Shown here in pieces: positions 711 through 61,775 of a stretch of DNA of 64,000 nucleotides. The stretch's first letter is position 1. Each line of letters opens with the position of its first letter. The notes beneath the pieces were generated by a model. That model was not told the origin of the DNA and did no database searches. It worked only from the letters and a program-made list of their open reading frames with translations. Source of the stretch: a bacterium (GTDB lineage: Bacteria > Patescibacteriota > Microgenomatia > Curtissbacterales > GWA2-41-24); contig JAKAJD010000001.1 of NCBI GenBank assembly GCA_021813945.1, positions 496,412 through 560,411 on the forward strand, given 5' to 3'. The translations under genes and the position numbers were made by a program.

Positions 711-1566
711 CTTTTTTTGCTTGAATCTTTGGCTGTTCGTCTTTAGTTAAGGTCAGGTCTTTTTCTTGGGATCCGGCCTGGGTTAAGGCCTGACCTTTTT
801 GCACAGCCTGACCTTTTTGCACAACCTCTGCAGCAGACTCTCCAGCAAGTGCCACCTTTTGCTGCGCGCTCTTCTTCTCAAACTTTTCCCGCCCGCTCTT
901 ATATGCATCTGCTATAGCGGCAGTAATAATCGCAATCGATTTTATGGCGTCGTCATTTCCAGGAATCGGGTAGTCGACTAGGTTTAAATCCGCATTCGTG
1001 TCGCAAATTGCAACAACCGGTACACCTTTATTTTTAGCCTCCCGGCAAGCGTTTTCTTCGCGCTTAACGTCGATAATGAAAATTGCATCGGGAAGTTTGG
1101 CAAGTTCTTCAACTCCGCCATAAAAGCGGGTCAACTTAGCAATATCTCGGTCTATCAAAAGCTGTTCTTTTTTAGTCCTGTCCTTAAACTCGCCAGTAGC
1201 TTTTTTCTCCTTTAAATCCTTAAGCTTTTTGAGACTTTTGCTGGTTTGCTCAAAGTTAGTAAGAAGTCCACCGATCCAGCGCTCGGTAATGTGCATTGCG
1301 CCAGCTTTTTGGGCTTCTTCCAAAACAATCGATCGGGCTTGTTTTTTTGAACCCAAAAAAATGATAATTCCGCCTGCTTCTCCAATTTTTTCAACAAAAT
1401 TTACAGCTTCTTCCAATTTTGGCACCGTTTGCCCTAAATCTATAACATGAACTCCGTCGCGGGCTCCAAAAATATACTGGTTCATCTTTGGATTCCAACG
1501 ACGTACTTGATGACCGAAGTGGACTCCGGCTTCCAAAAGATCCTGCATTGACGGTACTTTTGACAT
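700..1566 (-). CDS. rpsB: 30S ribosomal protein S2 with a Q/A/K-rich C-terminal extension partly encoded by repeat elements
   Basis: MQDLLEAGVHFGHQVRRWNPKMNQYIFGARDGVHVIDL is the canonical S2 N-terminus. The C-terminal ~60 aa (QKGQAVQKGQALTQAGSQEKDLTLT) overlaps the palindromic repeat copies at 749-819. Confidence 0.92.
   Translation of the reverse strand: MSKVPSMQDLLEAGVHFGHQVRRWNPKMNQYIFGARDGVHVIDLGQTVPKLEEAVNFVEKIGEAGGIIIFLGSKKQARSIVLEEAQKAGAMHITERWIGGLLTNFEQTSKSLKKLKDLKEKKATGEFKDRTKKEQLLIDRDIAKLTRFYGGVEELAKLPDAIFIIDVKREENACREAKNKGVPVVAICDTNADLNLVDYPIPGNDDAIKSIAIITAAIADAYKSGREKFEKKSAQQKVALAGESAAEVVQKGQAVQKGQALTQAGSQEKDLTLTKDEQPKIQAKKDAN
749..819. repeat. AAGGYCWGRCCTT palindromic repeat cluster (3 units), in-frame inside the rpsB 3' region
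   Basis: aaggtcaggtctt (749-761), aaggcctgacctt (785-797), gcctgacctt (807-816). Translated on the minus strand as ...KGQAVQKGQALT... Confidence 0.8.
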
Positions 1567-2638: not shown

Positions 2639-4411
2639 TCACTTGATACTTGCAAGCTTCTTATCAATTCTCATTTCACTTTCGCGCCTGGCCAAATCGT
2701 ATTTGTTAAAATCCACAAACTTCAAAACATTAACCAGTGTTGGATGGATTTTGGCTACGGCTTCCACCTTTAAATGTTCAATTCTTCTGTAGTCCGGATG
2801 TCCCTGCGGTCCTGTCCTAAGTTCTGCTTCCCAAGCAAGTTCCCTCAAATTTTCCCACTGGTACCAGCGGATTTTATGCCCCATCATCACAACATACTGG
2901 GCTTGGTCCGGATAACGCTTTTTGATCTTCCTGTAAAACTTATCGATTTTCCCCGCCGCATCAACATACGGCTTTTCTAACTTAGCACTGACCAAATCAG
3001 GCGGCACGTCAAACCCTAATTCCGTAGTAAGCCTTTGGCGCTCTTGTGTCAACATCCTGTGACGGTGAAGATCTCGATAGCAGCCAAAATTGGCAATCAG
3101 GTCGAACTTGTAATATGTGTTTTCGAAAGCCCGGACCAATCTATGCTGACGCACACCCCGCCCGGCAATAGCCTTTTTGACAATTGAAAGCTTTTGGTTT
3201 GGCTTCATTTTCAAAACTGCTTCTTTGATCTGATGATAGGAAAGTGTCGAGTACTTGTATAGAAGGCTTGCAACAATTCTGTCTTCGGCGTCTGCATCCC
3301 ATTCCACAAGTTCGACATCGCCTCCTTCGCTAAGGCCAAACCTTTTTCCAAGTGAATCGAGTGCTAAGGTCTGGCCTTTTTCATTGTTAAGGCCAGGCCT
3401 TAACGCTTGAGTGTCCGAGGTAAGGGCCTGGCCTTTACCTAGGCTTGCTGCCAGATCCTCCAACGCCTTTTCCGTCTTCGCCACATACTTTTGGTAAATC
3501 CTTCCCTTTTCACTTGTTGCCCGCTCCACCATCGAAGGGATTACTTCCATCATTTCCCTTTGCGCTGCTTTTCCAATTTCCCGAATTTCCGAAAGTGGCG
3601 ATGCCAAACACTTGGTAATCACATATTCAAAGGCTTGCCCGACACCAAAAAATCCAACATTGGTCAGCGTACCTGCCGGCAAGTACGCCCGCAAAACATC
3701 GTAGGCTTTGGCATTCATCGTTTCACGATATGCCCGGTCGCTTTGCCCTTCTTCCTGCTTAAACTTTCGCCTTAAATATTTAGAAAGGGGCTCCAAAGAC
3801 TCGGAATAGCGCCGAAAAAGCATATTGGAAAGTCGAAGGTACTCGGCCCCGTAAGAAGATTTCGCCAAATTCGGGTCTACAAAATACTGCCAGCTGCCTA
3901 AAACCTTCGTATCAAAAGCTACATAGCGGGTCGATTTTTCCAGTGGCGCAAAGCCGATCCTGAAATCCTCCAGAGTTTTTGTGGCAATTTGCGAAACACC
4001 TTCCAAAAATAAATGCGCTCCGGCCATCTGCGCTATAGAATCATCGCCATAGGCGGCAAGCCACCTTGCAAAGAAACTTCTAGCCCGTTTACTATTTACA
4101 ACTGCTTCCCAGCCGCCATGTGTGTGCAGGAAATCTACAAAAGCTATAAGTTCCTTCTTCATAACCTCCGCCTCTTTTTGCGATTTAGAATCAACACCCT
4201 CCAAATTGGGTTCCAAAATTGGCTTTATGTACTCATCGAAAAATAGTCGGCGCACTCCTTTTGTGGATCTCGAATATCGGGATGCTAGTGCTCCCAAAAC
4301 TTCACTCGGCAAGTACTTCGCCGCAAAAATGTTTTTGTCTAAATTAGTAAAAAACGGGGAAATATACCAAGCCTCTTCTTTTGTAAATTTTTCAACCGGA
4401 AATTTATTCAT
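2639..4411 (-). CDS. thyX: FAD-dependent thymidylate synthase ThyX-family protein (long, 590 aa) carrying an in-frame repeat insertion
   Basis: ThyX signature RHR...S (FGCYRDLHRHRMLTQERQ) and LGALASRYSRS motif. The length is comparable to long two-domain ThyX proteins. Residues GKGQALTSDTQALRPGLNNEKGQTLA are encoded by the repeat copies at 3331-3435. Confidence 0.7.
   Translation of the reverse strand: MNKFPVEKFTKEEAWYISPFFTNLDKNIFAAKYLPSEVLGALASRYSRSTKGVRRLFFDEYIKPILEPNLEGVDSKSQKEAEVMKKELIAFVDFLHTHGGWEAVVNSKRARSFFARWLAAYGDDSIAQMAGAHLFLEGVSQIATKTLEDFRIGFAPLEKSTRYVAFDTKVLGSWQYFVDPNLAKSSYGAEYLRLSNMLFRRYSESLEPLSKYLRRKFKQEEGQSDRAYRETMNAKAYDVLRAYLPAGTLTNVGFFGVGQAFEYVITKCLASPLSEIREIGKAAQREMMEVIPSMVERATSEKGRIYQKYVAKTEKALEDLAASLGKGQALTSDTQALRPGLNNEKGQTLALDSLGKRFGLSEGGDVELVEWDADAEDRIVASLLYKYSTLSYHQIKEAVLKMKPNQKLSIVKKAIAGRGVRQHRLVRAFENTYYKFDLIANFGCYRDLHRHRMLTQERQRLTTELGFDVPPDLVSAKLEKPYVDAAGKIDKFYRKIKKRYPDQAQYVVMMGHKIRWYQWENLRELAWEAELRTGPQGHPDYRRIEHLKVEAVAKIHPTLVNVLKFVDFNKYDLARRESEMRIDKKLASIK
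3331..3435. repeat. AAGGYCWGRCCTT palindromic repeat cluster (4 units), in-frame inside thyX
   Basis: taaggccaaaccttt (3331-3345), aaggtctggcctt (3366-3378), aaggccaggcctt (3389-3401), aagggcctggcctt (3422-3435). Confidence 0.8.
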
Positions 4412-4931
4412 AAGATTTTTTTAGCCAGTTTAAAACCTCCCTATCCCAAAATTTCCGGACCCATTTACTTTTGGTTTCATAAAGTAAAATTCTTTTTAGT
4501 CTATCGATTCCAAGCCATTTCACTTCGTCTATTTCATCTTCTTCTAACTTAAATTTAGTAGCATTCGAAAATAAAGCAAAAACACCCTGAAATTCCGCAT
4601 GTTTCGGCTTGTTACTTTTAAAAACGTTGTAAAATTTAAAATCCTTTTTATAGACTTTTATCCCTAACTCTTCCGAAACTTCCGAACAGGCGTTATCCAA
4701 ATAGTCTTCACCCGGCGCAAGATGCCCTCCGAAAAACGCTTCCCAAAATCCTGGATTTTGGTCTTTTTTTAAAGATCTCCTTTGGCATAAGATCTCCTTT
4801 TTTGAATTGATTATCCAGACACCGCTTGTCCTATGCCACATCCTTTTGCCGTGAACTATCTTCCTCGGTTTCGGTGCTAAAGGCTGATTATTTTCGTCAA
4901 CGACAAATAGCAACTCATCCTTATTTATCAT
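4404..4931 (-). CDS. Nudix hydrolase
   Basis: Nudix box-like GGHLAPGEDYLDNACSEVSEELGI (Gx5Ex7[R/S]EUxEExGU). Confidence 0.7.
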   Translation of the reverse strand: MINKDELLFVVDENNQPLAPKPRKIVHGKRMWHRTSGVWIINSKKEILCQRRSLKKDQNPGFWEAFFGGHLAPGEDYLDNACSEVSEELGIKVYKKDFKFYNVFKSNKPKHAEFQGVFALFSNATKFKLEEDEIDEVKWLGIDRLKRILLYETKSKWVRKFWDREVLNWLKKSYE

Positions 4932-5505
4932 TTACGTGCTCGATAACTTCCTTTGCAATTTTCTCTTTAGCCTTTGTCCCGTCCAAAACAATAAATTTAA
5001 ATTCTTTTGCCAAATCCAAATAATTTTTTCTGACTTTTTCCAAAAATTTCTCTTTTTCAAAAAGCTCTTTTTTACCTCTCGAAGTTTTAATACGCTTCAT
5101 CGCAGTAGGAACCGGCACATCCACCAAAAAAGTGGTGTCCGGCATAGGAAAATTTGGGCTAAGGCCTCTTAACCATTTGCCATCCAGATTTAACTGCCCG
5201 TATGCATAAGTTGAAAAATAATACCTGTCGGAGATGACAACTTTGTCAGTCTTGAGAGAAGGCAATATCAATTTGTCCAAATGGTCTGCCCTGTCGGCAC
5301 TATACATTAACTGCAATGCCTCCCAGGAGAATTTAACCTCTCCCCTTAACGCCTTTCGAATTAATTTGCCAATCGGCCCATCGGTTGGCTCACAGGTTTC
5401 AACAACCTTTTTGCCTTTTGATTTTAAGTATTTAAAAAGAAGGTTTGTTTGAGTTGTAGACCCGGCCCCGTCTATTCCCTCGAAAACTATGAACTTTCCC
5501 TTCAT
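4921..5505 (-). CDS. tmk: thymidylate (dTMP) kinase
   Basis: P-loop FIVFEGIDGAGSTTQ, LID region and DRY-like motif VISDRYYFST; typical Tmk length. Confidence 0.88.
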   Translation of the reverse strand: MKGKFIVFEGIDGAGSTTQTNLLFKYLKSKGKKVVETCEPTDGPIGKLIRKALRGEVKFSWEALQLMYSADRADHLDKLILPSLKTDKVVISDRYYFSTYAYGQLNLDGKWLRGLSPNFPMPDTTFLVDVPVPTAMKRIKTSRGKKELFEKEKFLEKVRKNYLDLAKEFKFIVLDGTKAKEKIAKEVIEHVNDK

Positions 5506-6743
5506 GCTTTGTGGATTTTAGAAGCAACAGCTTTCCTGGAACCCGAATATCTGTCCGACCTTGAGCCTTCGTATTTCATTTTGACAGGCGCAGACAATTT
5601 TTCAAAAGTAAATGCACAAATCGCCATTCCGCAATATAAAATTGCGGGCTTTGGCCCTAGATTTCCAAGTTCCAATACCGGCGCCCCGTTCCACCCCGGA
5701 TCAAACCGAGCTGCCGTTGAATGCACCAAAATCCCTAACCTCGCCAGCGAAGATTTACCTTCCAATCTTCCCAAAACATCTGCCGGCAACTTCAAAACCT
5801 CCGAAGTAGATGCAATCGCAAAAGCTCCGGGTTCCAAAATAAACGGATCGCCCTCTGACAAATTTATCTCCTCCATTGCATCTTCAGGCAAACCCCGCCT
5901 TGTATCTATAAACCTGTAAGCACCGGCCCTAAAAAGCTTAATGTTTGTTCCAAGATGAAAATCCATAGAAACCTGGTCAATCTTTTCCCTCCAGTCGGAA
6001 GTCAACGGGTCGATCTTGATCGTTCCTTTTTCTATAAGCTCAGCAATCTGCCAATCCGCCAAAATCCCGGCACCCTCAGTAATTTTTAACTTTTTAATTT
6101 TGACTTTTGACTTTTTATCTTGTTTCATTTGCCGGAAGTAATCATAAATTATCTGACTCCAGGTTTCCATATTTTTATAGGAACGGCCCAGCTGCGCCAT
6201 TGAAACGAGCTCTCCGCTTTTATGCTCGTCTTTTACCTGAATTTTGTCACTATCGCCAACCAAATGGATTACCAGACCTACATGCACTAAGCCGACATCG
6301 TTCGAATCGTCATTTATAATCCCCAAAAAGTTAGCTTTGTAGTTTCCCGAAAAATCAATCTCTTCGGCAAATTCACGCTTGGCCCAACCCAAAAGCCCTT
6401 GCCCGTTCATGTCGCGGCGATTTATATGGCCGCCAATTCCGATTGAATACTTATTGGAAAGACGTTTGTCTGTATGGTCACCTTTTCGGCGCATCAAAAA
6501 AATCTTGCCGTTGTGCTCAAAAATTAAATAAGGGATTATTTGCTGCCACCTTGCATCCGATTCAACTTCGCCTCTTGCCATAAACCTGTGCTTGGAATTT
6601 ATGGTGTTTATGTATTTCTGGACGTTATCGCCCCTTAAGCCGTGCCAAATTCCGCCGGCAAAAATATCGGATCTTGAAACGACCATAACCCGTTCTTCGT
6701 GTTTAGATCCAATTGGTGATTTTTTCTGAGATTTCTTAGGCAT
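5502..6743 (-). CDS. dcd: fusion protein: N-terminal Nudix-like domain plus C-terminal dCTP deaminase/dUTPase-fold domain
   Basis: N-terminal half has REFAEEIDF (Nudix RExxEE). C-terminal half has ILADWQIAELIEKGTIKIDP ... GRLEGKSSLARLGILVHSTAARFDPGWNGAPVLEL, the canonical Dcd motifs. Confidence 0.75.
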   Translation of the reverse strand: MPKKSQKKSPIGSKHEERVMVVSRSDIFAGGIWHGLRGDNVQKYINTINSKHRFMARGEVESDARWQQIIPYLIFEHNGKIFLMRRKGDHTDKRLSNKYSIGIGGHINRRDMNGQGLLGWAKREFAEEIDFSGNYKANFLGIINDDSNDVGLVHVGLVIHLVGDSDKIQVKDEHKSGELVSMAQLGRSYKNMETWSQIIYDYFRQMKQDKKSKVKIKKLKITEGAGILADWQIAELIEKGTIKIDPLTSDWREKIDQVSMDFHLGTNIKLFRAGAYRFIDTRRGLPEDAMEEINLSEGDPFILEPGAFAIASTSEVLKLPADVLGRLEGKSSLARLGILVHSTAARFDPGWNGAPVLELGNLGPKPAILYCGMAICAFTFEKLSAPVKMKYEGSRSDRYSGSRKAVASKIHKA

Positions 6744-6791: not shown

Positions 6792-6862
6792 AAGGCCTTT
6801 TTGTCACGCCCCGTGTTAAGGGCAGGTCTTAGGCCAGGCTTACCCTTGTAAGGTCTGCCCTT
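6792..6862. repeat. palindromic repeat hairpin spanning the dcd-topA intergenic region and the last codons of topA
   Basis: gaaggcctttt (6792-6801); aagggcaggtctt (6818-6830) and aaggtctgccctt (6850-6862) form an inverted pair. The topA stop codon (6840-6842) lies inside the element, so the topA C-terminus ...EEKGQTLQG is encoded by it. Confidence 0.8.
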
Positions 6863-8849
6863 TTTCCTCTGGTTTAGAAACTTCCAATTTCGGCTTCGTC
6901 CAGCTTGCAAACTTACATTTTGGCCAATTGCTGCATCCCCAAAAAGTTTTTCCCCGTTTTGTCCTGCGGGTTACCACGTCACCGGTTTTACAATCCGGGC
7001 ATTTCATACCCGTTTCCTCATTTAAAGCTTTTGTGTTTTTACAATCCGGAAAACCCGAACATGCCAAAAACTTTCCAAACCTTCCGTATCTAACCACCAT
7101 TGGCTTTCCGCATTTGTCGCAAATCTCGTCCGTAGTTTCCACTTCGACTTTCATTTTGTCTGCCTCCTCGGCAACCTTTTCGACCTTCGCTTCAAACGGC
7201 CCCCAAAATTTCTTCATGGTTGGCGGCATTTCTGCCTTACCCTGAGCGATACTATCCAAATCGTCCTCCATCTCCGCCGTAAACGAATAATCGAAAATGT
7301 CGGAAAAATATTTCATCAGAAAATCGATCGTTGTTTTTCCAATCGGCGTCGGTGCGATTTTCTTGCCTTCCATTTTTTCTATATATAACCTGTCGTATAA
7401 AGTTGAAATTGTCGGTGCATAAGTAGAAGGCCTGCCAATCCCGTTTTTCTCCAAGTCGCGGATTAGTGTTGCCTCGGTATACCTTGCTGGCGGTTCAGTG
7501 AATTTCTGTTGAGGATTGATATTTTTGAAGTCGAGCGCTTCACCTTTTACCAAAGTTGGCAACACCTGTTCTGTGATCGGTGCCTTTTCGTAAACCTTAT
7601 ACCAACCGTCAAATTTTATCTGCTGACCCGTAGCCCTCAAAAGATATTTTTGAGAGGTGGCACTTGCCTCAACCTCAACCGCCGTTTCATTAACAACCGC
7701 TTCGGCCATTTGGCAAACAACCATCCGCTTCCATATCAGGTCGTAAAGTTTTTTCTCGTCCGGGCTTCCATCTATCGACTGACGGGAAACATTGGTCGGC
7801 CTAATTGCTTCATGCGCTTCCTGTGCCAACCTCGATTTGACCTTGTATGCCCGCGGCTTTTCCGGTAAATAATTCCTCCCGTAATTTTCTTCAATAAACT
7901 TTCTTGTCGCAGAAACGGCTTGAGGCGACAAATTCACGGAATCTGTTCTCATATAAGTAATCAGTCCGTTTTCATAAAGGCTTTGGGCAACACTCATTGT
8001 GCGCTTTGGCACAAACCCCAAAACGTTAGCTGCCCGCTGCTGCAAGGTTGAAGTTGTAAATGGAGGATTCGGATATTTTTTAACTTCTTTCGACTCAACC
8101 GAAGAGACAGAATAGTCGGAAACCTTAAGGTCTGAAACTGCTTGATCCGCTTCCTTTTGATTTTTAACTTCGGCTTTCTTCCCGTTGATCTTGGCAAGCG
8201 TAATTACAAACTGGTCTCTGGCCTCTGGTTGCTGGCGACTAACTTCTACTTCAATCACCCAGTATTCTTCACTCTTGAACGCTTCTATTTCCCGCTCCCT
8301 TTCAACAACCAGACGCAAAGCTACCGATTGCACCCTGCCAGCCGAAAGCTTGCTTTTGACCTTTTTCCACAAAAGCGGCGAGAGCTTGTAACCGACTAAT
8401 CGATCCAGAATTCGCCTTGCCTGTTGGGCCTCCACCAGATTTTGGTCCAAATCCCTTGGATGCGAAAATGCATCCAGTACCGCGTCTTTTGTAATTTCAT
8501 GGAAAACGACACGCTGGTATTTTTGCCTTGCCATTTTTGCTTTGGATTTCTGCTCAATAACCTTAAGCAAATTCCATGCAATAGCTTCCCCTTCCCGGTC
8601 AGGGTCGGTGGCAAGGTATAAATTGGTAACACCCTCTGTAGATTTAACCAGCTGGTTGACCATCTTCATTTTGTTTTTGGGAATTACGTACTTCGGCTCG
8701 AAGTTGTGATCCACATCCACGCCAAATTCGCCTTTTGGCAAATCACGAACGTGCCCCATCGAAGCCAATATTTGATAGTCGCTTCCCAAATACTGGGTAA
8801 GCGTCCTTGCTTTGGTTGGCGACTCAACAATAACTAAATTTTTCGACAT
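6840..8849 (-). CDS. topA: DNA topoisomerase I
   Basis: N-terminal Toprim LVIVESPTKARTLTQYLG...GHVRDLP and C-terminal Cys4 zinc ribbons (CDKCGKPMV...CSGFPDC, CPDC...CSNWPKC). Confidence 0.93.
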   Translation of the reverse strand: MSKNLVIVESPTKARTLTQYLGSDYQILASMGHVRDLPKGEFGVDVDHNFEPKYVIPKNKMKMVNQLVKSTEGVTNLYLATDPDREGEAIAWNLLKVIEQKSKAKMARQKYQRVVFHEITKDAVLDAFSHPRDLDQNLVEAQQARRILDRLVGYKLSPLLWKKVKSKLSAGRVQSVALRLVVEREREIEAFKSEEYWVIEVEVSRQQPEARDQFVITLAKINGKKAEVKNQKEADQAVSDLKVSDYSVSSVESKEVKKYPNPPFTTSTLQQRAANVLGFVPKRTMSVAQSLYENGLITYMRTDSVNLSPQAVSATRKFIEENYGRNYLPEKPRAYKVKSRLAQEAHEAIRPTNVSRQSIDGSPDEKKLYDLIWKRMVVCQMAEAVVNETAVEVEASATSQKYLLRATGQQIKFDGWYKVYEKAPITEQVLPTLVKGEALDFKNINPQQKFTEPPARYTEATLIRDLEKNGIGRPSTYAPTISTLYDRLYIEKMEGKKIAPTPIGKTTIDFLMKYFSDIFDYSFTAEMEDDLDSIAQGKAEMPPTMKKFWGPFEAKVEKVAEEADKMKVEVETTDEICDKCGKPMVVRYGRFGKFLACSGFPDCKNTKALNEETGMKCPDCKTGDVVTRRTKRGKTFWGCSNWPKCKFASWTKPKLEVSKPEEKGQTLQG

Positions 8850-12590: not shown

Positions 12591-13673
12591 TTACACTCCC
12601 CAAATCCCGCTCCCGTAATTTTTAACAAAACCCGTAAGTTCCATCAAAGATAGTGCTGCAGATACTTTTTCTATCGGCAATTTAACTTCCTTGGCAATTG
12701 CATCAACGTGCTTCGTTCCCCCATCCAAAACCGCCAATATCCTCGCCTGATCCTTGTCTTTTGGCTTTTGGTTCCTGGTCTCTGGTAACTGGTCTCTTTT
12801 CCTGCTAATGTCCAGTACCTCCAAAATGTCATCAGCAACTGTCGCCACATGCACCCCGTCTTTTATCAGATTATTCGTACCCTCAGAAGTCTTGGAAGTC
12901 ACCGGCCCGGGCACTGCAAACACTTCCCTGCCTTGCTCTGCCGCATAACCTGCGGTAATCAAAGACCCACTGTCAACCGCAGCTTCCGTAACCAAAACGC
13001 CAAGTGATAAACCGGAAATGATGCGGTTTCTGGCTGTAAAATTGTTCGGCAAGGCAGGGAACCCAAGCGGAAATTCGGAAATCAACGCCCCATTTTTTAC
13101 AATTTCTTCGGCAAGTTTCCTATTTTCCGGCGGATAAATACTATCAATACCCGATCCTAAAACCGCAATCGTCCGGCCGCCGCTATCAAGTGCCATTCTA
13201 TGGGCAACCGCATCTATTCCCCGCGCAAGACCACTAACTATCGTCAGCCCATTCTTTGCCAGGTCAAACACTAACCTTTCCGTTATCTGCCTGCCGTAGA
13301 TCGTCGCGTTGCGGCTACCAACAACCGCAACCGCTAAATCATCCGCAGGCAGTAAATTCCCGCGGAAATACAAAACCGCCGGGCATGCTTCCAGTTGCCG
13401 CAAATTCGCAGGATACTCCCTGTCTATTTTGGCAACGACTTTAATGCCCATTGCGTAAACCTTCTCCAGATAAATTTTCGGGTCAACTTTGTTGCGGAAA
13501 TCAATTATCGACGCCTTAGTTTTAACATCAATCTTAAGCGTTTGAATTTCACTATCCGCCGCCTCCCAAAATTTTTTTAACGATTTGAATTTTTTATGAA
13601 GATAAGAAAAAGTCTGCGACCCAACTCCCGGAATCGCCGAAGTCGCCACCCAATAAGCCAACTCACGGTTCAT
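12591..13673 (-). CDS. dprA: DNA processing protein DprA (Smf)
   Basis: Rossmann-fold DprA core VAVVGSRNATIYGRQITERLVFDLAKNGLTIVSGLARGIDAVAHRMAL...TIAVLGSGID.IYP.EN. Confidence 0.88.
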   Translation of the reverse strand: MNRELAYWVATSAIPGVGSQTFSYLHKKFKSLKKFWEAADSEIQTLKIDVKTKASIIDFRNKVDPKIYLEKVYAMGIKVVAKIDREYPANLRQLEACPAVLYFRGNLLPADDLAVAVVGSRNATIYGRQITERLVFDLAKNGLTIVSGLARGIDAVAHRMALDSGGRTIAVLGSGIDSIYPPENRKLAEEIVKNGALISEFPLGFPALPNNFTARNRIISGLSLGVLVTEAAVDSGSLITAGYAAEQGREVFAVPGPVTSKTSEGTNNLIKDGVHVATVADDILEVLDISRKRDQLPETRNQKPKDKDQARILAVLDGGTKHVDAIAKEVKLPIEKVSAALSLMELTGFVKNYGSGIWGV

Positions 13674-24384: not shown

Positions 24385-25380
24385 ATGGCAAAAATCTTAG
24401 ACGGCCGGACTGTGCGCGACAAGATATTAGACAATCTTAAAACGCAGATCGCTAATCTTAAAACGAAACCAAAACTGATTATTATTCAAGTCGGCGACCT
24501 GGATGAAAGCAACACTTATATCGGGCAGAAAATTAAATTCGGCCAGAAAATCGGTGCCATTGCCGAACTTAAAAAATTCCCCGCCGACATTACTCAAAAC
24601 CAGCTGACCTCCCAGCTCCAACAGCTAAATGCTGACCCAACAGTCCACGGCATTATCATCCAGCTGCCAATTTCCCAACATTTGGACAAAGACGAATTGA
24701 TAGAGATGATTGATCCAAAAAAAGACGTTGATGGTCTAACTGCTACAAACGAAGAACTTTTGGAAGAAAACAATCCCGATGCCTTAGTCCCCGCAACCGC
24801 CAAAGGCGTCATCACCATCCTTAACTATTACAAAGTGCCGATTAAAGGCAAAAAAGCAGCAGTTGTCGGCCGATCTAAACTTGTCGGCAAGCCGGTAGCA
24901 ACGCTTCTCAGAAATTTGGGAGCCGAAGTTGAAGTCGGCCACAGCCAAACGCCGAATCTGACAGTTCTTACAAAACCGGCAGACATCATCGTTGTCGCCG
25001 TCGGGAAACCAAACTTAATCACCAAAAACCACGTTTCCCCCGGCCAAACAGTAGTCGATGTAGGTATAAACGTTGTCCAACCGGACAAGGTCAGGCCTTG
25101 GAAAACTGAAAGGCCTGACCTTAAAATCAAAGAAAAAGGCCTGACCTTAGCTAAGCCAGATGACAAGGCCAGGCCTTTTGCCAACGACGGATCTCAGTTA
25201 AGGCCTGGCCTTAACGCAAGCCGAAAACTCGTTGGCGACGTCGCCTTCACCGAAGTCGAACCAATTGTCGCTGCCATTACCCCCGTCCCCGGCGGCATTG
25301 GCCCCATGACCGTCGCCTCCCTCTACGAAAACCTTCTCCTAGCCTACGAATCCCAAAAATTAATTTCTAAAAGGAGCTAA
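24385..25380 (+). CDS. folD: bifunctional methylenetetrahydrofolate dehydrogenase/cyclohydrolase carrying a ~45-aa repeat-encoded insertion
   Basis: LIIIQVGD..S..Y, DVDGL, AVVGRSKLVGKPVATLL, VVDVGIN, ITPVPGGIGPMTVA. Insertion VRPWKTERPDLKIKEKGLTLAKPDDKARPFANDGSQLRPGLNASRKL lies between VDVGINVV and GDVAFTE, where canonical FolD has a short loop. Confidence 0.9.
   Translation: MAKILDGRTVRDKILDNLKTQIANLKTKPKLIIIQVGDLDESNTYIGQKIKFGQKIGAIAELKKFPADITQNQLTSQLQQLNADPTVHGIIIQLPISQHLDKDELIEMIDPKKDVDGLTATNEELLEENNPDALVPATAKGVITILNYYKVPIKGKKAAVVGRSKLVGKPVATLLRNLGAEVEVGHSQTPNLTVLTKPADIIVVAVGKPNLITKNHVSPGQTVVDVGINVVQPDKVRPWKTERPDLKIKEKGLTLAKPDDKARPFANDGSQLRPGLNASRKLVGDVAFTEVEPIVAAITPVPGGIGPMTVASLYENLLLAYESQKLISKRS
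25087..25212. repeat. AAGGYCWGRCCTT palindromic repeat cluster (5 units), in-frame inside folD
   Basis: aaggtcaggcctt (25087-99), aaggcctgacctt (25110-22), aaggcctgacctt (25136-48), aaggccaggcctt (25165-77), aaggcctggcctt (25200-12). Confidence 0.85.
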
Positions 25381-26715: not shown

Positions 26716-28470
26716 ATGTACGCGGATGTTGTCGTATTAACCTACCAAGCACCGGATATCGACTCTTTTACATATGAAATTCCCAAAGGCCTAGACGTAA
26801 AAATCGGCCAACTGGTCGAAGTGCCATTCGGCAATAGACGTCCGACGGGAATAGTTGTGTCTAAAGACGAACGACTAAAGACTAACGCCAAAAATATTAG
26901 GCCCATTTCAAAGATTCTGCTCAACCGACCGATTTTGCTTCCCTATCAAATCGAACTCCTTAAATGGATGGCCAACTACTACCTCGCCCCAATGGTCAAC
27001 TGTCTGGAAGTAATGATGCCGAAAATCCCCAAAAAGTCTCTAGGCGAAAAGGCCAGGCCTTTACGCACGGACTCACCTCAGTTAAGGCCTGGCCTGAACC
27101 TTAACCATCAAGCGCAAAAGGTCAAGCCTTGGAAAACTGAAAGGTCTGACCTTAAGTTTAGCCAATCAATAATCCTCATCCCCTCAATCAACCGCATTCC
27201 GGAAACGTTAGCCAAATTCCCAAAAGCCAAAAATCCCGTCGTCTATCACAACGAACTAAAACCGGCGGAAAAACTTAACGCTTGGCAAAAAATTCTCTCC
27301 AGCGATGCTGATTACATTTTTGGGTCCAGATCCGCCGTTTTCGCTCCTTGCCCAAACCTTTCGGAGATCATAATCTACGACGAGCACGACGGCGCCTACA
27401 AAGACGAGCGCTCACCTTATTTTGACACCTTAACTGTTGCCCAAAAAATCGTAGAGCTCACCCGCGCCGAGCTAAAAATAGTCGACCCTTGTCCAAAAAT
27501 CACTACTTATTTTGGTCTTAAAAACCATATCAAAATGCAAAACTTTCCTCAAGAAACCACCGTAGTGGATATGCAAAACGAAAAGCAAAGCGGCCGCAAG
27601 AGCCCGATAAGCTTTGACCTCGAAGAAAAAATCCAAAATACTATTGACGAAAAAGGTAGTATTTTCCTGTTCTTAAACAAAAAGAAGGAGTCCGGTCACA
27701 TGTTTTGCAAATCTTGCAAGAATTCGCAGTTTCTGCAAAAACAACCGGAAACTTGCCCTGAATGTGCCTCTGCAGATATTTTTTGGAACGTTTTAAATAT
27801 CGACTCGCTTTCCGCCGAAGTTAAAAGACTATTTCCAAAAACGAAGGTTAATGCTATTTCTGGCGTTAGTCGTTCGTCGTTAAACGTTAGTCAAATTACA
27901 ATCGGGACGGCTTACTCCCTCTATGCCCAGCTTTTGAAAAAATACGATCTTGTAGCCCACATCCAAACCGATTCGGTCGCAAATCTTCCCGACTTTAACT
28001 CGCAAGAAAAACTTTACGCGCAAATTACGTCTTTGAAAAAACTTCTCACACCGGGCGGCAAACTATTCTTGCAAACCTACAATGTTGAAAATCGAACTAT
28101 AGAAGCTGCTGCAACCGGGAACTACCAGGCTTTTTTCGAAAGCGAAATATACCAAAAGAAACCTCTTAACTATCCCCCTTTTGGAATGCTTTTTAAGCTA
28201 ACCGCAAAGGGCAAAAACAAAGAAAAAATTCAAAAAGAGGCTCAGAAATTTTACGCGCAGCTGAAATCAAAACTCGATGAAAACATCACAACCCTCGGGC
28301 CTTATGAATCAGTCTTTATGCAAAAAACGCCAAGCTATCATATAATCTGCAAATACAAGCTTAAAAATTTCAGCTTATCGGAAAGAGAAAAGGCTGCCAA
28401 ACACGTAAGACCCCTAATCACCTTGCCCAAAAACTGGCAAGTTACAGTAGAACCTGATTCAATTAACTAA
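26716..28470 (+). CDS. priA: primosomal protein N' (PriA) homologue lacking an obvious Walker A; the repeat insertion sits at that position
   Basis: N-terminal 3'-DNA-binding domain VVVLTYQAPDIDSFTYEIP...VEVPFGNRRPTGIVV. Helicase motifs Ia/Ib/II present (IILIPSINRIPETLA, FGSRSAVFAP, IIYDEHDGAYKDE), then a Cys cluster CKSC...CPEC. No GxGKT; the corresponding position holds the repeat-derived peptide. Confidence 0.7.
   Translation: MYADVVVLTYQAPDIDSFTYEIPKGLDVKIGQLVEVPFGNRRPTGIVVSKDERLKTNAKNIRPISKILLNRPILLPYQIELLKWMANYYLAPMVNCLEVMMPKIPKKSLGEKARPLRTDSPQLRPGLNLNHQAQKVKPWKTERSDLKFSQSIILIPSINRIPETLAKFPKAKNPVVYHNELKPAEKLNAWQKILSSDADYIFGSRSAVFAPCPNLSEIIIYDEHDGAYKDERSPYFDTLTVAQKIVELTRAELKIVDPCPKITTYFGLKNHIKMQNFPQETTVVDMQNEKQSGRKSPISFDLEEKIQNTIDEKGSIFLFLNKKKESGHMFCKSCKNSQFLQKQPETCPECASADIFWNVLNIDSLSAEVKRLFPKTKVNAISGVSRSSLNVSQITIGTAYSLYAQLLKKYDLVAHIQTDSVANLPDFNSQEKLYAQITSLKKLLTPGGKLFLQTYNVENRTIEAAATGNYQAFFESEIYQKKPLNYPPFGMLFKLTAKGKNKEKIQKEAQKFYAQLKSKLDENITTLGPYESVFMQKTPSYHIICKYKLKNFSLSEREKAAKHVRPLITLPKNWQVTVEPDSIN
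27049..27153. repeat. AAGGYCWGRCCTT palindromic repeat cluster (4 units), in-frame inside priA
   Basis: aaggccaggcctt (27049-61), aaggcctggcct (27084-95), aaggtcaagcctt (27118-30), aaggtctgacctt (27141-53). Shares the loop ggaaaactgaaa with the folD copy. Confidence 0.85.
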
Positions 28471-31894: not shown

Positions 31895-32005
31895 AAGGCC
31901 AGGCCTTTTCGCAGTAGTTCGTCTTGGTTAAGGCCTGGCCTTAACGAACGTTGACTAAAGGGCAGGCCTCAACCAAAGCCCTTTCCACGAAAAAGACCTG
32001 CCTTT
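31895..32005. repeat. intergenic cluster of palindromic repeat units (4 units)
   Basis: aaggccaggcctt (31895-907), aaggcctggcctt (31930-42), aagggcaggcct (31958-69), agacctgcctt (31994-32004). Confidence 0.8.
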
Positions 32006-40904: not shown

Positions 40905-41093
40905 ATGGCAAAGTCAAAAAGAGTCTTGTTCCAGCTGCAATGCACTGTTTGTAAATCGAAAAATTACACAAACAGCAAAAATCCGGACAATATCGCGCTA
41001 AAGCGCAAAAGCCAGGACACCAAAATTAACCTCAAAAAGTTCTGTAAGCGTTGCAGAAAAGTTACCGAGCATAAAGAGGTCAAGATAGCTTAA
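40905..41093 (+). CDS. rpmG: 50S ribosomal protein L33
   Basis: Zinc-ribbon CTVCKS...CKRC and KVTEHKEVK; typical L33 length. Confidence 0.88.
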   Translation: MAKSKRVLFQLQCTVCKSKNYTNSKNPDNIALKRKSQDTKINLKKFCKRCRKVTEHKEVKIA

Positions 41094-41138
41094 GGTCAGG
41101 TCTTAGGCTAAAAACTAATCCAACAAAGGCCTGACCTT
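41092..41138. repeat. ~47-bp composite palindromic element (terminator-like) starting at the rpmG stop codon
   Basis: aaggtcaggtcttaggctaaaaactaatccaacaaaggcctgacctt. Near-identical copies at 61676-61721 (same orientation) and 62751-62786 (inverted). Confidence 0.85.
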
Positions 41139-41187: not shown

Positions 41188-43701
41188 GTGGCAAAACATA
41201 AGCTCCTCAAAACCTGGTCACTGGTTACTGGAAACTGGAAACGTAGAGTCGGTTTCACTCTTATTGAAGTCATGGTCGTTATTGCCATAATCGGGACGCT
41301 GGCCAGCATAAGCACTTTCGCGCTTGGCAAAGCAAGAACTAAAGGGAGCGATTCTAAAAGAAAGGCGGATCTAAAAGCCATCCAAACTGCTGCAGTTGCT
41401 TATTATCAGGACTTCAACCAGTTCCCTCCAGGCACAACACCAGGCAACGTATTTTCTTCGGACACCGGCGCTAACTGGATTCCCGGAATATCAGACTACA
41501 TCAAAAAACTCCCCAAAGACCCGCTCCAATCCGGTATCTTATATTACCTGGCCAATCTTATTAAAAATCCTGTTCAAAATGGCGAAAAATTCTTAGCCGG
41601 ATTATTTTCCAAACCAGCTCAAACAACAAAAACCATACCCCAAGTTGCAGCAGCAACAACAGTAACTTTAAGGCCTAACGGCGTTGGCTCGAGTACTCAG
41701 TGGACTCCGTTAACCGCACCAAATTATTCCCAGGTAAAAGAAGCCACCGCGGACAATGATGCAACTTACGTAAAATCTAATGTTATCAATCAAATGGATC
41801 TCTATAAAATCGACCCAAACTCAATCAGCGGTACTATTACAGGTATTACGGTCAAAGTTGTAACTCGCGCCAACGCAGGCCAAGACCCGATGAGCTATAT
41901 TTACATCCGCACAGGCAGCACCAACTATGCAAGCAGCCCGGGCTTCCAAACCGGCATAGGCGGAACTTACGTGACTTCCAGCTATACCTGGGCAACAAAC
42001 CCTAAAACCGGTGTGGCATGGACGCCTGCAGATATTACCGCTCTTGAGATCGGCATACTAAATAGTTGGACTGAATACCGCTTCTTGACCCAAGAATATG
42101 TGGAGGTAACATACACTCCGACAGGCACGTCTGTAAACATCAATGCAAACACAACAGACAACACCATCAGGTTTTATGCTAGTGGATACTATCCACCCGA
42201 CCCCAGCGGGGGCTGCGATATTGCCCCTCCTGCTGGATCAACCTATTCTCTAACTGGTCAATACTATACCGGCGGCGGTTATTACAAATACAGAAGCTAT
42301 CTCGCCTTTGACACTTCTTCAATCCCAGCTGGCTCAACAATAAACTCGGTAACCTTGACACAAACGGTGTACGTTAAAAGTTTGGGAACTAATTTTAACC
42401 TCCTTGCCTTAAATTATAACTGGGGGCCTACAGTCGACTGCACAAAATGGGGAGGTACACCACCCACAGCCCCACAAGTTGGCAGCATTGCCACAACAAG
42501 CCTTCCTGCCGTAGGATCTTCCTTCACAATGTCCCTGGCAAACTCTGTTGTTAACGCTGGAGGATCAACCTACATGATGCTTCTAAGTGACAGGGACGCA
42601 GCCAACACAATCCCAACAGGGCTGGAAGCCTTTGGCGCATACAGCGCAGAATCGGCCACCCCGCCTCAAATAAGTATCAATTATACGCCGCCAGCCACGC
42701 CGATAGTCACAACAACTGCCGCAACAGGTCTCAGCGGATCTGGCGCAACCTTAAATGGAACTGCAAACCCAAATGGTTCTGCAACAACAGGATGGTTCCG
42801 CTACAGCACCACAAGCCCTGGAACCTGCAATGACACATTCGGCACAAGAGCACCCTCTACTGGAGGCAACGCTCTCGGATCAGGCACAACCGCGGCACCC
42901 TATTCCCAAACAATTGGCAGCCTTACAGCATCAACAACTTATTACTTCTGTGCTCTTGCTTCAAATGCAAGCGGCACAGGTTATGGCACAGTGCTTTCCT
43001 TTACAACTTCTGCCTCAGCACCAGTCGGGACAATTTCCGCAGGGGCCCCAACAATTCCAAGCGGCAGCAGCACATCAATCACCTGGAGTACAACACCTAG
43101 CGGCACGGGGTGCGCCGTTTCCCCGGGTGGAGGAAGCGGGCCCAGCGGCACCTTATCCACCGGGCCACTAACGTCTACAACAACATACACCTTACATTGC
43201 ACCGACGCGGGCTTCATAGATAAAACTGCAACAGTGACAGTCAGCGGCGCTTCTTCTTCTGCCAACATCAAAGCCAATGGATCCGACGGTCCATATTCAG
43301 CAAATGTTGGCGATTCGATAAACATAACCTGGACCTCATCAAATACCACCAGCTGCACAGTAACAGGGGGGCCTGGCGGCTCAGGCACATCCGGTTCATT
43401 TTCGTGGACTGTACCAGGCACTCCGACTCCTCCAACTAGCTACTCCTTCTCACTTTCCTGCACAGGTGGTACTGCCAGCGACAGTGTCACCGTTAATGTA
43501 ACCTCTTTGGGAGTTGCAACCTGTCAAAACAAGAAGAATATTTATTGCTATATAGTCAATACAGACAGAAGTTCGTTTGTTATTTGGGCCCAACTCGACA
43601 ACACATCTGATCCGCAAATTTCTACCAATCCTGGTGCACTTTGCACACTTTCCCCACCGGACCCCAACTTCAACTACTGCGTCGAGTCCTCGTCGCTTTA
43701 G
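41188..43701 (+). CDS. giant type IV pilin-like protein (837 aa): prepilin N-terminus plus large Ser/Thr/Gly-rich beta-repeat C-terminal region
   Basis: RRVGFTLIEVMVVIAIIGTLASI: canonical G|FTLIE prepilin cleavage/methylation motif and pilin alpha-helix. The C-terminal 780 aa is rich in T/S/G with repeated modules (GSGATLNGTANPNGSATTGWFRYSTT...). The two plus/minus ORFs listed inside it are alternate-frame artefacts. Confidence 0.7.
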   Translation: MAKHKLLKTWSLVTGNWKRRVGFTLIEVMVVIAIIGTLASISTFALGKARTKGSDSKRKADLKAIQTAAVAYYQDFNQFPPGTTPGNVFSSDTGANWIPGISDYIKKLPKDPLQSGILYYLANLIKNPVQNGEKFLAGLFSKPAQTTKTIPQVAAATTVTLRPNGVGSSTQWTPLTAPNYSQVKEATADNDATYVKSNVINQMDLYKIDPNSISGTITGITVKVVTRANAGQDPMSYIYIRTGSTNYASSPGFQTGIGGTYVTSSYTWATNPKTGVAWTPADITALEIGILNSWTEYRFLTQEYVEVTYTPTGTSVNINANTTDNTIRFYASGYYPPDPSGGCDIAPPAGSTYSLTGQYYTGGGYYKYRSYLAFDTSSIPAGSTINSVTLTQTVYVKSLGTNFNLLALNYNWGPTVDCTKWGGTPPTAPQVGSIATTSLPAVGSSFTMSLANSVVNAGGSTYMMLLSDRDAANTIPTGLEAFGAYSAESATPPQISINYTPPATPIVTTTAATGLSGSGATLNGTANPNGSATTGWFRYSTTSPGTCNDTFGTRAPSTGGNALGSGTTAAPYSQTIGSLTASTTYYFCALASNASGTGYGTVLSFTTSASAPVGTISAGAPTIPSGSSTSITWSTTPSGTGCAVSPGGGSGPSGTLSTGPLTSTTTYTLHCTDAGFIDKTATVTVSGASSSANIKANGSDGPYSANVGDSINITWTSSNTTSCTVTGGPGGSGTSGSFSWTVPGTPTPPTSYSFSLSCTGGTASDSVTVNVTSLGVATCQNKKNIYCYIVNTDRSSFVIWAQLDNTSDPQISTNPGALCTLSPPDPNFNYCVESSSL

Positions 43702-53020: not shown

Positions 53021-53215
53021 GTGGCATTTAATCCGTTAACATACGTCAAAGAATCGAAAGCTGAACTCGAAAAAGTTATCTGGCCTACCCGCCAGGAAAC
53101 TTTACGATTAACTGTAATAGTTCTTTTAGTTGCAGTTGTGGTTGGCGCTTATGTTGCTGGCCTTGACACAATTTTTACTAAAATAACCGAAAGCCTTCTT
53201 AAGGTACACAAGTAA
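53021..53215 (+). CDS. secE: preprotein translocase subunit SecE
   Basis: [40 protein letters not shown]. Start placed at GTG 53021, with GGGAG 10 nt upstream. Stop overlaps the nusG ATG by 1 nt. Confidence 0.8.
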
Positions 53216-54126
53216 TGGACGACCAGGACGACAAGAAAATACAAGAAGATATAGCTGAAGAGGTTCCACAGGTTGTGGAAGAAAACAGCGCGGAAGAAAC
53301 AATGCCAACGGAGGATCAGTCGGAACCGTTGGAGGATCAAGCAACTTTTGCCCAGCCAGAAGACCAAGAGCCTTCTGAAAATCAGCCTTCTGGGGAAGAT
53401 CAGCCACAGTCAGAAGAAGAATCGCAAGAACTAGCATCTGAGCCAGAATCACCAAACGACCGAAACGCCGAAGAACAAAAAACCGCAGAAGAGCCAGTTG
53501 CAGACGAAGCTTCCGAATCAGTGGATCAAGCTGAAGAAAACCCGGAGGAATCTGAAATCCCAACCCCTGAAGAAAAACCGGCGCCCCAAAAACCCAAAAC
53601 CCCTGGTGCCAATTGGTACGTAGTCCACACCTACTCGGGTCATGAGTCAAAAGTCGCCGCTACCCTAAAACAAAGGGTGGACTCGCAAAAACTTTCGGAC
53701 AAAATCTTAGACATACTTGTCCCTACACAAGAAAAGATCGAAATAAAAGAAGGTAAGAAAAACACAGTAAAAGAGAAAATCTTCCCCGGCTATCTTCTAG
53801 TTCATATGATTTTGGATGATGCCACCTGGCTTGCCGTCAGAACAACACCTGGAATAACTGGTTTTATTGGAACTTCCAACAAACCAACCCCTCTTCCAGA
53901 AGACGAGGTTGAAACCATCAAACGCTTCATGAGCATGGAAGCGCCGAAATTTAAAGCCGCATTTTCAGTTGGTGAGGCAGTCAAAATTACCGACGGCCCA
54001 TTTTCGGAATTTTTGGGGTCGATTTCTGAAATCGACGAAGAAAAAGGCAAACTCAAAGTTTTGGTTTCGATTTTTGGACGAGAAACACCAGTCGAATTGG
54101 ATTTCCTCCAAGTTGCTAAGCTTTAA
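53215..54126 (+). CDS. nusG: transcription termination/antitermination factor NusG with a ~130-aa acidic N-terminal extension
   Basis: NGN domain [14 protein letters not shown]...[10 protein letters not shown] and C-terminal KOW ([22 protein letters not shown]). Residues 1-130 are D/E/Q/P-rich low complexity. Confidence 0.9.
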
Positions 54127-54157: not shown

Positions 54158-54203
54158 AAGGGCAGGCCTTTGTGCTGCATAATCAGGGTTAAGGCCTGCC
54201 CTT
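54158..54203. repeat. inverted palindromic repeat pair (terminator-like) 30 nt after the nusG stop
   Basis: aagggcaggcctt (54158-70) ... aaggcctgccctt (54191-203). Confidence 0.8.
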
Positions 54204-56980: not shown

Positions 56981-56997
56981 GTTGTAAAAACCTGGTT

Positions 56998-57080
56998 AAG
57001 GGCAGGCCTTAACCTATGGCTTTTGCTGCAAAAAGGCCTGCCCTTTATCGTGTAAATGAGGTAGAAAAAGACCTGACCTT
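56998..57080. repeat. palindromic repeat cluster (3 units)
   Basis: aagggcaggcctt (56998-57010), aaggcctgccctt (57033-45), agacctgacctt (57068-80). Confidence 0.8.
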
Positions 57081-57876: not shown

Positions 57877-58470
57877 ATGGCAGACGACGATCAAAAACAA
57901 GACGAAGCAAAGCAAGCAGAAGAATCAGCAGACGCTGCCGAGGAAGCTGCCGACAAAGCAGAAGAATCAGCAGACGCTGCCGAGCAAGCAGCTCAAGAGG
58001 CAAAAGACGCCGAAAAAGAAGTAAAAGAAGAAATTAAAGAGGTAAAAGAAGAGAAAAAGGAAGAAGCCAAAGCCGATGTAAAAGTCAGCAAAAAGTTAGA
58101 GGGCTTAATTTCCGATATCGAAAAACTTTCTGTTTTGGAGCTTTCTGAATTGGTTAAAGCACTCGAGGCAAAATTCGGAGTTTCGGCCGCACCTCAGGTA
58201 GTTGCAGGAAGCGCTGCTCCAGCCGCAGCTGGTGGCGACGAAGGTGCTTCAGAACAAACCACTTTCAATGTCATAATCTCAGACAGCGGAGCCAATAAAA
58301 TTTCCGTCATTAAAGTGGTTCGCGAACTAGTTCCAACTCTTGGACTTAAAGAAGCAAAAGATTTGGTAGATGCAGCCCCCAAACAAGTTTTGGAAGGGGT
58401 AAACAAAGAAACGGCAAATGAGGCAAAGACAAAGCTAGAAGCAGCAGGCGCGAAAGTAGAGCTCAAATAG
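57877..58470 (+). CDS. rplL: 50S ribosomal protein L7/L12 with a ~65-aa acidic/Lys-rich N-terminal extension
   Basis: L12 [26 protein letters not shown] and [34 protein letters not shown]...AGAKVELK. Preceded by [30 protein letters not shown] repeats. Confidence 0.9.
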
Positions 58471-58476
58471 CTAGAA

Positions 58477-58524
58477 AAGGTCAGGCCTTAGCCTAAGTCA
58501 AGACTAAGAAAAAGGCCTGACCTT
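58477..58524. repeat. inverted palindromic repeat pair (terminator-like) 7 nt after the rplL stop
   Basis: aaggtcaggcctt-agcctaagtcaagactaagaaa-aaggcctgacctt. Confidence 0.85.
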
Positions 58525-61675: not shown

Positions 61676-61775
61676 AAGGTCAGGTCTTAGGCTAAGAATA
61701 TCCCAACAAAGGCCTGACCTTTTAGCTCACACTCTTACGAAGGTCTGGCCTTGGAAAACTAAAAGGCCAGACCTT
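61676..61775. repeat. composite palindromic element array flanking the galT 3' side
   Basis: Copy of the 47-bp element (61676-61721), then aaggtctggccttggaaaactaaaaggccagacctt (61740-75) and TTGAGATAAC. Confidence 0.85.

Follow-up and report, generated by a model that had tools for sequence, protein, structure and literature searches.

In a 64,000-nucleotide stretch (hereinafter, the window) of the genome of a bacterium of the Patescibacteriota, or Candidate Phyla Radiation (CPR), assigned to Microgenomatia and Curtissbacterales (assembly GCA_021813945.1, contig JAKAJD010000001.1, positions 496,412 to 560,411 of the forward strand), the folD gene contains, within its reading frame, a 126-bp segment that consists of palindromic hairpin modules belonging to a family dispersed in the window and in other CPR genomes. 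The gene and the parts of the segment are the following.

24385-25380, plus strand: folD, an intact open reading frame (ORF) of 331 amino acids (aa) in the ORF list, for the bifunctional methylene-tetrahydrofolate dehydrogenase/cyclohydrolase
25087-25122, plus strand: type A hairpin of 36 nt, with arm AAGGTCAGGCCTT, the 10-nt loop GGAAAACTGA and arm AAGGCCTGACCTT, 13 of 13 arm positions complementary
25136-25148, plus strand: lone third arm AAGGCCTGACCTT, a direct repeat of arm 2 at 15 of 15 positions, one flanking base on each side included
25165-25212, plus strand: type B hairpin of 48 nt, with arm AAGGCCAGGCCTT, a variable loop of 22 nt and arm AAGGCCTGGCCTT, 13 of 13 arm positions complementary

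The product of 24385-25380 is a FolD by domain composition and by its functional residues. Both Pfam domains of the family, PF00763 and PF02882, score well over the cut-off, and the catalytic and NADP-binding residues, namely, Y45/K49, Q93, D116, GRS 162-164 and PGGxGP 302-307, show no variation among the 32 homologues aligned (alignment A1), as an earlier note on this DNA, made from the letters alone, had supposed for the motifs flanking the segment. Solved FolD structures match the protein in a PDB search (E 1e-58), and residues 6-246 and 250-291 of one of these (8wfc), which form consecutive blocks, align with residues 3-237 and 280-321 of the query, so that about 42 residues occupy the place of a turn of about three residues in the solved FolDs. 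This two-block alignment, together with the Pfam assignment, bears out the proposal of an in-frame insertion between the VDVGIN and GDVAFTE segments of the NAD(P)-binding domain, where canonical FolD has but a short loop. The insert begins in codon phase 0 and supplies residues 235-276, KVRPWKTERPDLKIKEKGLTLAKPDDKARPFANDGSQLRPGL (the peptide VRPWKTERPDLK is an example from the translation across 25087-25212); its base composition proved to be unremarkable (GC 0.49 versus 0.47 in the remaining folD; GC at third codon positions 0.50 versus 0.49), and the mean hydropathy of the inserted peptide is -1.18, compared to -0.03 for the rest of the protein. Structure prediction, which had been suggested as a check on the loop, left it unstructured: the AlphaFold2 model built on the 32-homologue alignment has a mean confidence (pLDDT) of 83, with values below 50 at residues 234-278 alone, and superimposes on solved FolDs with target-normalised template-modelling (TM) scores of 0.90-0.94 and a root-mean-square deviation of about 2 Å. 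Judging from the model and the intact residues, the enzyme is very probably functional with an extra loop in the NAD(P)-binding domain, as the earlier note anticipated, and the loop is unstructured.

A second, different insertion of 25-40 aa is found at columns ~150-190 of alignment A1 (approximately residues 128-130 of the window FolD, after NEELLEE) in seven other homologues, P0011, P0022, P0023, P0027, P0034, P0035 and P0088, and is absent from the window FolD (here and below, P numbers denote FolD homologue proteins and L numbers denote DNA loci; P0004 is the same as L121). It is exemplified by GKIDYSSFLTRHPRESEDQILDQVENDT and ...VIPAEAGIQ..., and resembles another translated repeat family.

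The building block of the segment is a 13-nt near-palindrome, AAGGNCWGNCCTT, with exact copies starting at 25087, 25110, 25136, 25165 and 25200 and together spanning 25087-25212. Thus, the earlier description of the segment as a 126-bp array of five palindromic units stands with respect to the five copies and the span, and fails with respect to the array, given that the copies are 23, 26, 29 and 35 nt apart and that complementary pairing shows them to be the arms of two hairpins plus a single lone arm rather than five repeat units. Tandem Repeats Finder reported nothing for the folD region; the irregular spacing, the inverted arms and this empty result rule out a tandem array or a CRISPR. In folD, the type A hairpin is translated into KVRPWKTERPDL and the type B hairpin into KARPFANDGSQLRPGL, and the type B architecture is repeated at 27049-27096, within priA, and at 31895-31942. 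The arms, being nearly palindromic themselves, can pair in any combination; in particular, arm 3 alternatively pairs with arm 4, and the minimum-free-energy RNA fold pairs arm 3 with 25165-25179. On either strand, the folding of the 126-bp segment is much stronger than that of shuffled controls (z = -5.2 and -4.8). Where TTAA flanks a single arm (GTTAAGGNCWGNCCTTAAC; 56994-57014 and 25195-25215), the arm can fold on itself into a mini-hairpin of 8 bp, which was detected by both the terminator scan and the RNA fold.

The nearest FolD homologues are at most 73% identical to the window protein (BLASTP, 5.8 billion proteins), and the relatives that share the first 36 nt at the same site and in the same phase are 70-81% identical in the 32-homologue alignment. 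The type A hairpin occupies the same folD site in codon phase 0 in L119, L122, L123, L124, L126, L079 and L125; in L120, it is present at this site with the loop reverse-complemented, so that at least eight related species have it. Six homologues, including P0004 (81% identical in the alignment), have at the insertion site a loop of 11 aa, like the solved FolDs, which we take to be the empty site. The distal 90 nt, that is, the lone arm and the type B hairpin, were found in no other FolD; only this portion is unique to the genome, the first 36 nt being shared with the folD genes of relatives, and the insertion as a whole is not a single event of this lineage. What is conserved in the related genes is the repeat itself, not a protein segment independent of it, so that the alignment outcome named in the earlier note as a refutation was not obtained. 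More generally, the loop at this site ranges from 7 to 54 aa among 115 homologues and is built of several element types in several phases; peptides similar to that of type B are present in P0032 and P0033, and there are variants in other phases as well, such as SRSDLETTERSDL.

The differences between species within the type A stem are compensatory (TCAGG/CCTGA, TCAGA/TCTGA and CCAGG/CCTGG, with two further pairs in L126). Across 12 type A copies, 97% of the cells are paired and both sides have changed in 5 of the 13 pairs; the covariation score of these copies was reached in none of 500 shuffles and collapsed in the slid controls. In pairwise comparisons, codons for identical residues are themselves identical in 92% of the cases within the element, compared to 51% in the 40 codons on each side, which comprise the most conserved part of FolD. 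The 10-nt type A loop is identical in 15 of 15 pairs. The codon identity and the invariant loop thus place the constraint, or the homogenisation, at the level of the nucleic acid rather than that of the peptide.

The folD hairpin of L125 contains further sequence nested between the first arm and the loop (L125 10701-10786; caggcagagagaccttcagtctgaagcctt), and a similar 'caggctgaa...' repeat lies in an intergenic cluster of the window at 60686-60720. Possibly, the nested sequence represents another small repeat, one for which the hairpins serve as targets.

The window contains 29 exact matches to AAGGNCWGNCCTT versus 0.07 expected, a number reached in none of 100 dinucleotide-preserving shuffles; this amounts to approximately one exact arm per 2.2 kb, and 46 copies are found when one mismatch is allowed. 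The family is characterised by 13-bp stems, an AAGG...CCTT clamp and loops that measure either ~10 or ~22 nt. Its arms fall into 15 clusters, ten of them intergenic and five, including that in folD, in frame within proteins. The clusters outside folD are listed below, the intergenic ones being given without strand.

27049-27153, plus strand: in-frame hairpins of type B and type A in priA, at residues ~111-150, in the stretch that separates the 3'BD domain from the helicase core
3332-3435, minus strand: in-frame pair of hairpins with four arms in a ThyX-like gene, at residues ~323-365, directly before the Thy1 domain
749-797, minus strand: in-frame hairpin in ribosomal protein S2, within its C-terminal tail, the S2 Pfam domain ending at residue 225 of 288
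6818-6862, minus strand: hairpin across the topA stop codon, the element encoding the final seven residues, KGQTLQG
31895-31970: intergenic cluster between convergent genes; the orthologous spacer of L119 also has a hairpin
41092-41138: intergenic hairpin with a long loop
43706-43773: intergenic cluster of three arms, 5 nt past a stop codon
51014-51062: intergenic hairpin between divergent genes
54158-54203: intergenic hairpin, 32 nt past the nusG stop codon
56998-57080: intergenic cluster of three arms, overlapping a 107-aa ORF without a Pfam match
58477-58524: intergenic hairpin, 7 nt past the rplL stop codon
60673-60825: intergenic cluster past the inositol monophosphatase gene
61676-61775: intergenic type B and type A hairpins (type A loop GGAAAACTAA), 9 nt past a stop codon, between convergent genes
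62741-62865: intergenic cluster of four arms

Coding DNA, which makes up 90% of the window, holds only 5 of the 15 clusters (p = 1e-7), a deficit that fits the purging of disruptive insertions. The intergenic clusters are mostly located 5-52 nt past a stop codon, for example, those of nusG, rplL and the inositol monophosphatase and phosphomannomutase-like genes, and the genes beside them are complete and unrelated, so that no gene has been split by an element. The exact 36 nt of the folD type A hairpin is also present in non-coding DNA, at 61740-61775. The in-frame copies are confined to tails, linkers or loops of S2, ThyX, TopA, FolD and PriA. Two of the three phases of the 13-mer are stop-free and the third has a stop solely in the ...CTGA... 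variant; since the motif is palindromic, the same holds for the opposite strand, and folD alone, as read from its sequence, uses all three reading phases of the arm. Copies of so stop-poor a motif in tolerant loops, linkers and C-terminal tails would be translated as hydrophilic disordered peptide.

Some other features of the window are worth recording. All 2-kb bins have a negative GC skew (-0.04 to -0.24), so that the whole window lies on one replichore with a strong strand asymmetry; a similar strand disparity has reportedly been seen in a Microgenomates genome (PMC7143001). Acidic, low-complexity N-terminal extensions without hairpin arms are present in L7/L12 (rplL 57877-58470, 197 aa; extension of ~70 aa) and NusG (53215-54126, 303 aa; ~130 aa). 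The interval 2639-6743 is a nucleotide-metabolism cluster with ThyX-like, NUDIX, thymidylate kinase and dCTP-deaminase-like genes, in which the ThyX-like and dCTP-deaminase-like proteins have N-terminal extensions of ~320 and ~220 aa, respectively.

The site in priA shows a turnover of modules. In the window, this site is filled by a type B and a type A module, whereas L119 has only type B and L183 only type A there; the type A of L120, L141 and L193 is flipped, and L125 shows no recognisable module. The type B loops of the window and L119, counted from the sequences, are about 64% identical, with perfect arms. In L120, folD and priA share the flipped-loop variant TAAGTTTTCC (L120 10703-10738 and 12653-12688), which is also found in L141, L193, L197, L230 and L244. 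The shared variant suggests copying between loci or a genome-specific subfamily, and would be hard to explain without copying between loci. The spacer that separates the M50 peptidase gene from the LytR gene has a hairpin in L119 as well as in the window. Modules are thus added, lost and flipped at such sites, which act as long-lived landing pads. Between the Wzy_C and serine hydroxymethyltransferase (SHMT) genes, L119 has a gene of the bAvd/23S_rRNA_IVP family (7081-7443), and the window has no such gene at that place; bAvd is an accessory protein of diversity-generating retroelements.

The family extends far beyond this genome. One genome per species (596 Gb) was scanned for pairs of arms separated by 8-30 nt, and at least 116 loci were obtained, compared to about 3 expected by chance under uniform base composition, and named Patescibacteria account for 53 of the 80 matches listed by title, including Paceibacterota, Zambryski-, Nomura-, Kaiser-, Adler-, Campbell-, Vogel-, Berkel-, Woese-, Collier- and Gottesmanbacteria, and Saccharibacteria. 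These matches were chosen by the search pattern; it is likely that all CPR copies are homologous to the window family. The arms have lineage-specific variants, for example, AAGGTCAGACCTT and AAGGACAGTCCTT (Saccharibacteria), always accompanied by a complementary partner arm, and certain loop types, namely, GGGAATTCAAA and related ones, or AAGAGAGTTTCCCC, recur between phyla. Among the matches listed, 30 of the 53 CPR-labelled loci have their hairpin within an ORF that is 150 aa or longer. The hairpin occupies the same site in the zinc finger of the NAD-dependent DNA ligase (LigA) in L041 and L116, and the same site in Dus in L042 and L050; further in-ORF hairpins of CPR are found in UvrA, PheT, RNase R and a copper ATPase, and intergenic copies follow stop codons in other CPR genomes too.

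Several other collections and labels require comment. The hairpin-pair pattern was detected in one contig of 2.9 million in the viral collection, L127, which has three copies of the pattern within 240 nt (6370-6607), and BLASTN found no match to the segment in plasmids. Four metagenome-assembled genomes labelled 'uncultured Gammaproteobacteria' (L079, L009, L020 and L049) carry the motif variant of the window, and L079 has a folD of the Microgenomates type with a type A hairpin; these labels are probably wrong or the bins contaminated. A REP-like family of Sphingomonas and Novosphingobium (L018, L019, L027, L031, L054, L056, L062, L064, L077 and others) shares the AAGG..CCTT arm pattern within a longer stem (gagcttgtcg ... 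cgacaagctc) and is probably independent, having been matched by the pattern. The 18-nt type A core CCTTGGAAAACTKAAAGG proved unspecific as a metagenome probe: most of the 120 loci it retrieved were an unrelated coding block, ...FLGKLKGVSDPE.KRKIIG..., which we take to be GMP-synthase-like, and real hairpins, with at least 12 of 13 arm positions complementary, were present in eight, including L141, L183, L193, L197, L204, L230 and L244.

We consider it the best reading of these observations, with a probability of roughly 0.6, that the segment is a composite cluster of a dispersed hairpin element, akin to the repetitive extragenic palindromic (REP) and Rickettsia palindromic elements (RPEs), that is tolerated in a permissive disordered loop of FolD. 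Under this scenario, the type A hairpin was present already in the common ancestor of the group of related species, and the remaining 90 bp, two further modules, would have accreted beside it in the lineage of the window, either by insertion of further copies next to the existing one or by template switching between complementary arms. The evidence also points to active upkeep of the hairpin at the level of nucleic acid, be it through selection on the hairpin, through a palindrome that corrects itself or through copies that homogenise one another. Template switching is known to self-correct quasi-palindromes. Self-correction could produce perfect stems, but not an invariant loop, for which sequence-specific selection or copying from other copies would be needed; that the hairpin is kept intact leads us to infer a trans-acting factor or process that recognises it.

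Several points weigh against this scenario. The Pfam scan detected no transposase or RAYT-like (REP-associated tyrosine transposase) gene among the 47 ORFs of the window, no consistent target-site duplication was seen at the element borders inspected in the window and its orthologues, and no longer terminal repeats could be defined. We infer mobility rather than observe it because no close relative shows a presence/absence polymorphism; the anatomy, the family, the in-frame copies, the conservation at orthologous sites and the covariation, in contrast, are seen in the sequences themselves. In addition, the long retention of an invariant loop at orthologous sites exceeds what would be predicted for a purely selfish, decaying insertion and agrees no less well with a host function, and selfish repeat families do not usually keep one core motif across CPR lineages that are so deeply separated.

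A bolder possibility, for which the chances appear to be well short of even, is that the hairpin is a structure-specific cis element of the entire Patescibacteria superphylum, kept by conserved trans-acting machinery even inside essential coding genes. The signal would be the 13-bp dyad-symmetric stem with its AAGG...CCTT clamp and a few conserved loop types, and candidates for the machinery would be a domesticated transposase or nuclease, an enzyme that processes RNA, or a dimer that binds DNA. If this were true, the reading frames of CPR would carry a nucleic-acid signal that systematically shapes their proteomes.

The main rival, a host role in which the hairpins, rather than being primarily mobile DNA, are cis-acting RNA or DNA signals bound by a conserved CPR protein and the folD copy is under selection, seems doubtful to us, although the conservation and the location at 3' ends fit it equally well. 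The proposed roles are protection or processing of mRNA 3' ends, or a site for a homodimeric nuclease or nucleoid protein that would bind the two-fold stem, which is dyad-symmetric because the arms are themselves palindromic. An invariant loop and a compensatory stem at an orthologous intragenic site, where the flanking synonymous sites are near saturation, are what such a role would entail, as are the position of most intergenic copies 5-50 nt past stop codons, which is seen in other CPR genomes as well as in the window, and the recurrence of motif and architecture over many CPR classes with shared sites in LigA and Dus. However, there is no evident reason for a host signal to be placed in the coding loops of folD, priA, thyX, ligA and dus; both orientations occur and loops flip; and the occupancy of the sites differs among relatives. 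The hairpins are devoid of T-tracts and the 33 terminator-like sites of the window do not amount to a clear enrichment over 24.8 +/- 4.1, so canonical intrinsic terminators are unsupported; the counts of G-U versus A-C mismatches (G-T versus A-C in the DNA), compared so as to tell pairing in RNA from pairing in DNA, have mixed signs and come from too few imperfect hairpins to show a strand asymmetry that would point to RNA. The elements match no Rfam family, in permissive mode either: only tRNAs pass the gathering thresholds in the window, and the folD region gives generic hairpins of at most 24 bits against thresholds of at least 37. A host signal of this kind is compatible with a mobile origin, and the two are not exclusive.

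A DNA uptake signal, of the type of the Neisseria DNA uptake sequence (DUS) or the Pasteurellaceae uptake signal sequence (USS), could in principle have been built up by biased uptake and recombination in competent CPR, but we regard this as very unlikely. The density of exact arms is suitably high, copies are present in tolerated coding frames and as inverted pairs after genes, as is the case for DUS and USS, the motif has lineage-specific variants across CPR, and the window encodes DprA (12591-13673) and a pilin-like protein (41188-43701). The elements are, however, insertions of 36-126 nt relative to empty sites, whereas an uptake signal is a one-strand word that grows by substitution; nearly all arms form complementary pairs with covarying positions, which indicates intrastrand pairing, and the conserved loop would be left unexplained.

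The 42-residue loop might, alternatively, have been selected as a feature of the protein, for example, an interaction loop, with the palindromy of the DNA being incidental. The conservation of KVRPWKTERPDL in the FolD of several species and the similar peptide in PriA give this idea some appeal, but it is hardly credible in view of the conservation of synonymous positions (0.92 versus 0.51) and the paired residue changes, V/D to A/G and R/R to L/K, that follow base pairing. Furthermore, the same 36 nt is non-coding at 61740-61775, the flipped loop yields at this site a peptide, LSFP, that is unrelated, and disorder is predicted for the segment. Finally, palindromic repeats can misassemble, but an assembly artefact or a folD pseudogene has a negligible chance and is excluded as far as sequence data can show, given that separate NCBI and ENA records have contigs, one of 976 kb (ENA ERZ27237587 k141_182599) among them, on which the same 331-aa product is called, that the ORF is intact with all conserved residues present, and that relatives have the same element at the same site.

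Among the known systems, the closest parallels in behaviour are the REP/REPIN elements and the RPEs. The RPEs are palindromic and have many in-frame, translated and apparently fold-compatible copies in unrelated housekeeping genes (PMC10969869). The elements described here are likewise palindromic repeats dispersed in a small genome and inserted in frame into unrelated ORFs, namely, five proteins of the window and, in other CPR genomes, LigA, Dus, UvrA, PheT and RNase R. The RPEs, however, are about 100-150 bp long and comprise ten Rickettsia-specific families, each with a conserved peptide, whereas the CPR hairpins are read in three phases, are superphylum-wide and are conserved in nucleotide sequence at orthologous sites over a large divergence; with modules of 36 and 48 nt and a CPR host, they are set apart from the RPEs by description.

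The REP elements are short (20-40 nt), imperfect, high-copy palindromes located mostly just downstream of genes (PMC3733652), and are similar to the CPR hairpins, as are their derivatives, REPINs (REP doublets forming hairpins) and bacterial interspersed mosaic elements (BIMEs), in copy number, predominant 3' location, mixed orientations and retained complementarity. The differences are that the CPR arms start with AAGG and end with CCTT, without the GTAG or CGTC tag found at one end of REPs (PMC3733652), that no RAYT was seen among the window ORFs scanned with Pfam, and that the extragenic rule is broken by the 5 intragenic clusters of the window and the 30 in-ORF copies among the listed CPR-labelled loci. 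[quoted passage not shown] The CPR units are far shorter, and neither a consistent target-site duplication at the borders inspected nor longer terminal inverted repeats nor, in the window, a parent insertion sequence was found.

The likeness to DUS and USS in density, tolerated coding frames and inverted pairs after genes ends at the paired, covarying arms and conserved loops of the CPR insertions. Organellar genomes offer another precedent. The GC clusters and byp elements of yeast mitochondria are hairpins in genes, the latter bypassed by the ribosome. Nematomorph mitochondria, too, retain hairpin-forming inverted repeats within protein-coding genes (PMC6649704). The intragenic copies described here, in contrast to the organellar elements, all keep an open reading frame, and the simplest assumption is that they are translated through. 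No description of CPR hairpin elements was found in the 8 million papers and preprints searched, the subscription literature lying outside that search.

In-frame palindromic repeats in housekeeping genes have classically been a peculiarity of Rickettsia, and the same behaviour across CPR would make such repeats a general route to protein loops in small genomes. The CPR modules are much shorter than the RPEs, and the conservation of the hairpin beyond that of synonymous codon positions at orthologous sites points to a factor that acts on hairpins. By inflating and varying protein lengths, these elements can confuse orthology assignment and alignment in CPR genomes and, at the same time, they flag permissive insertion sites in proteins such as FolD, PriA, LigA and Dus.

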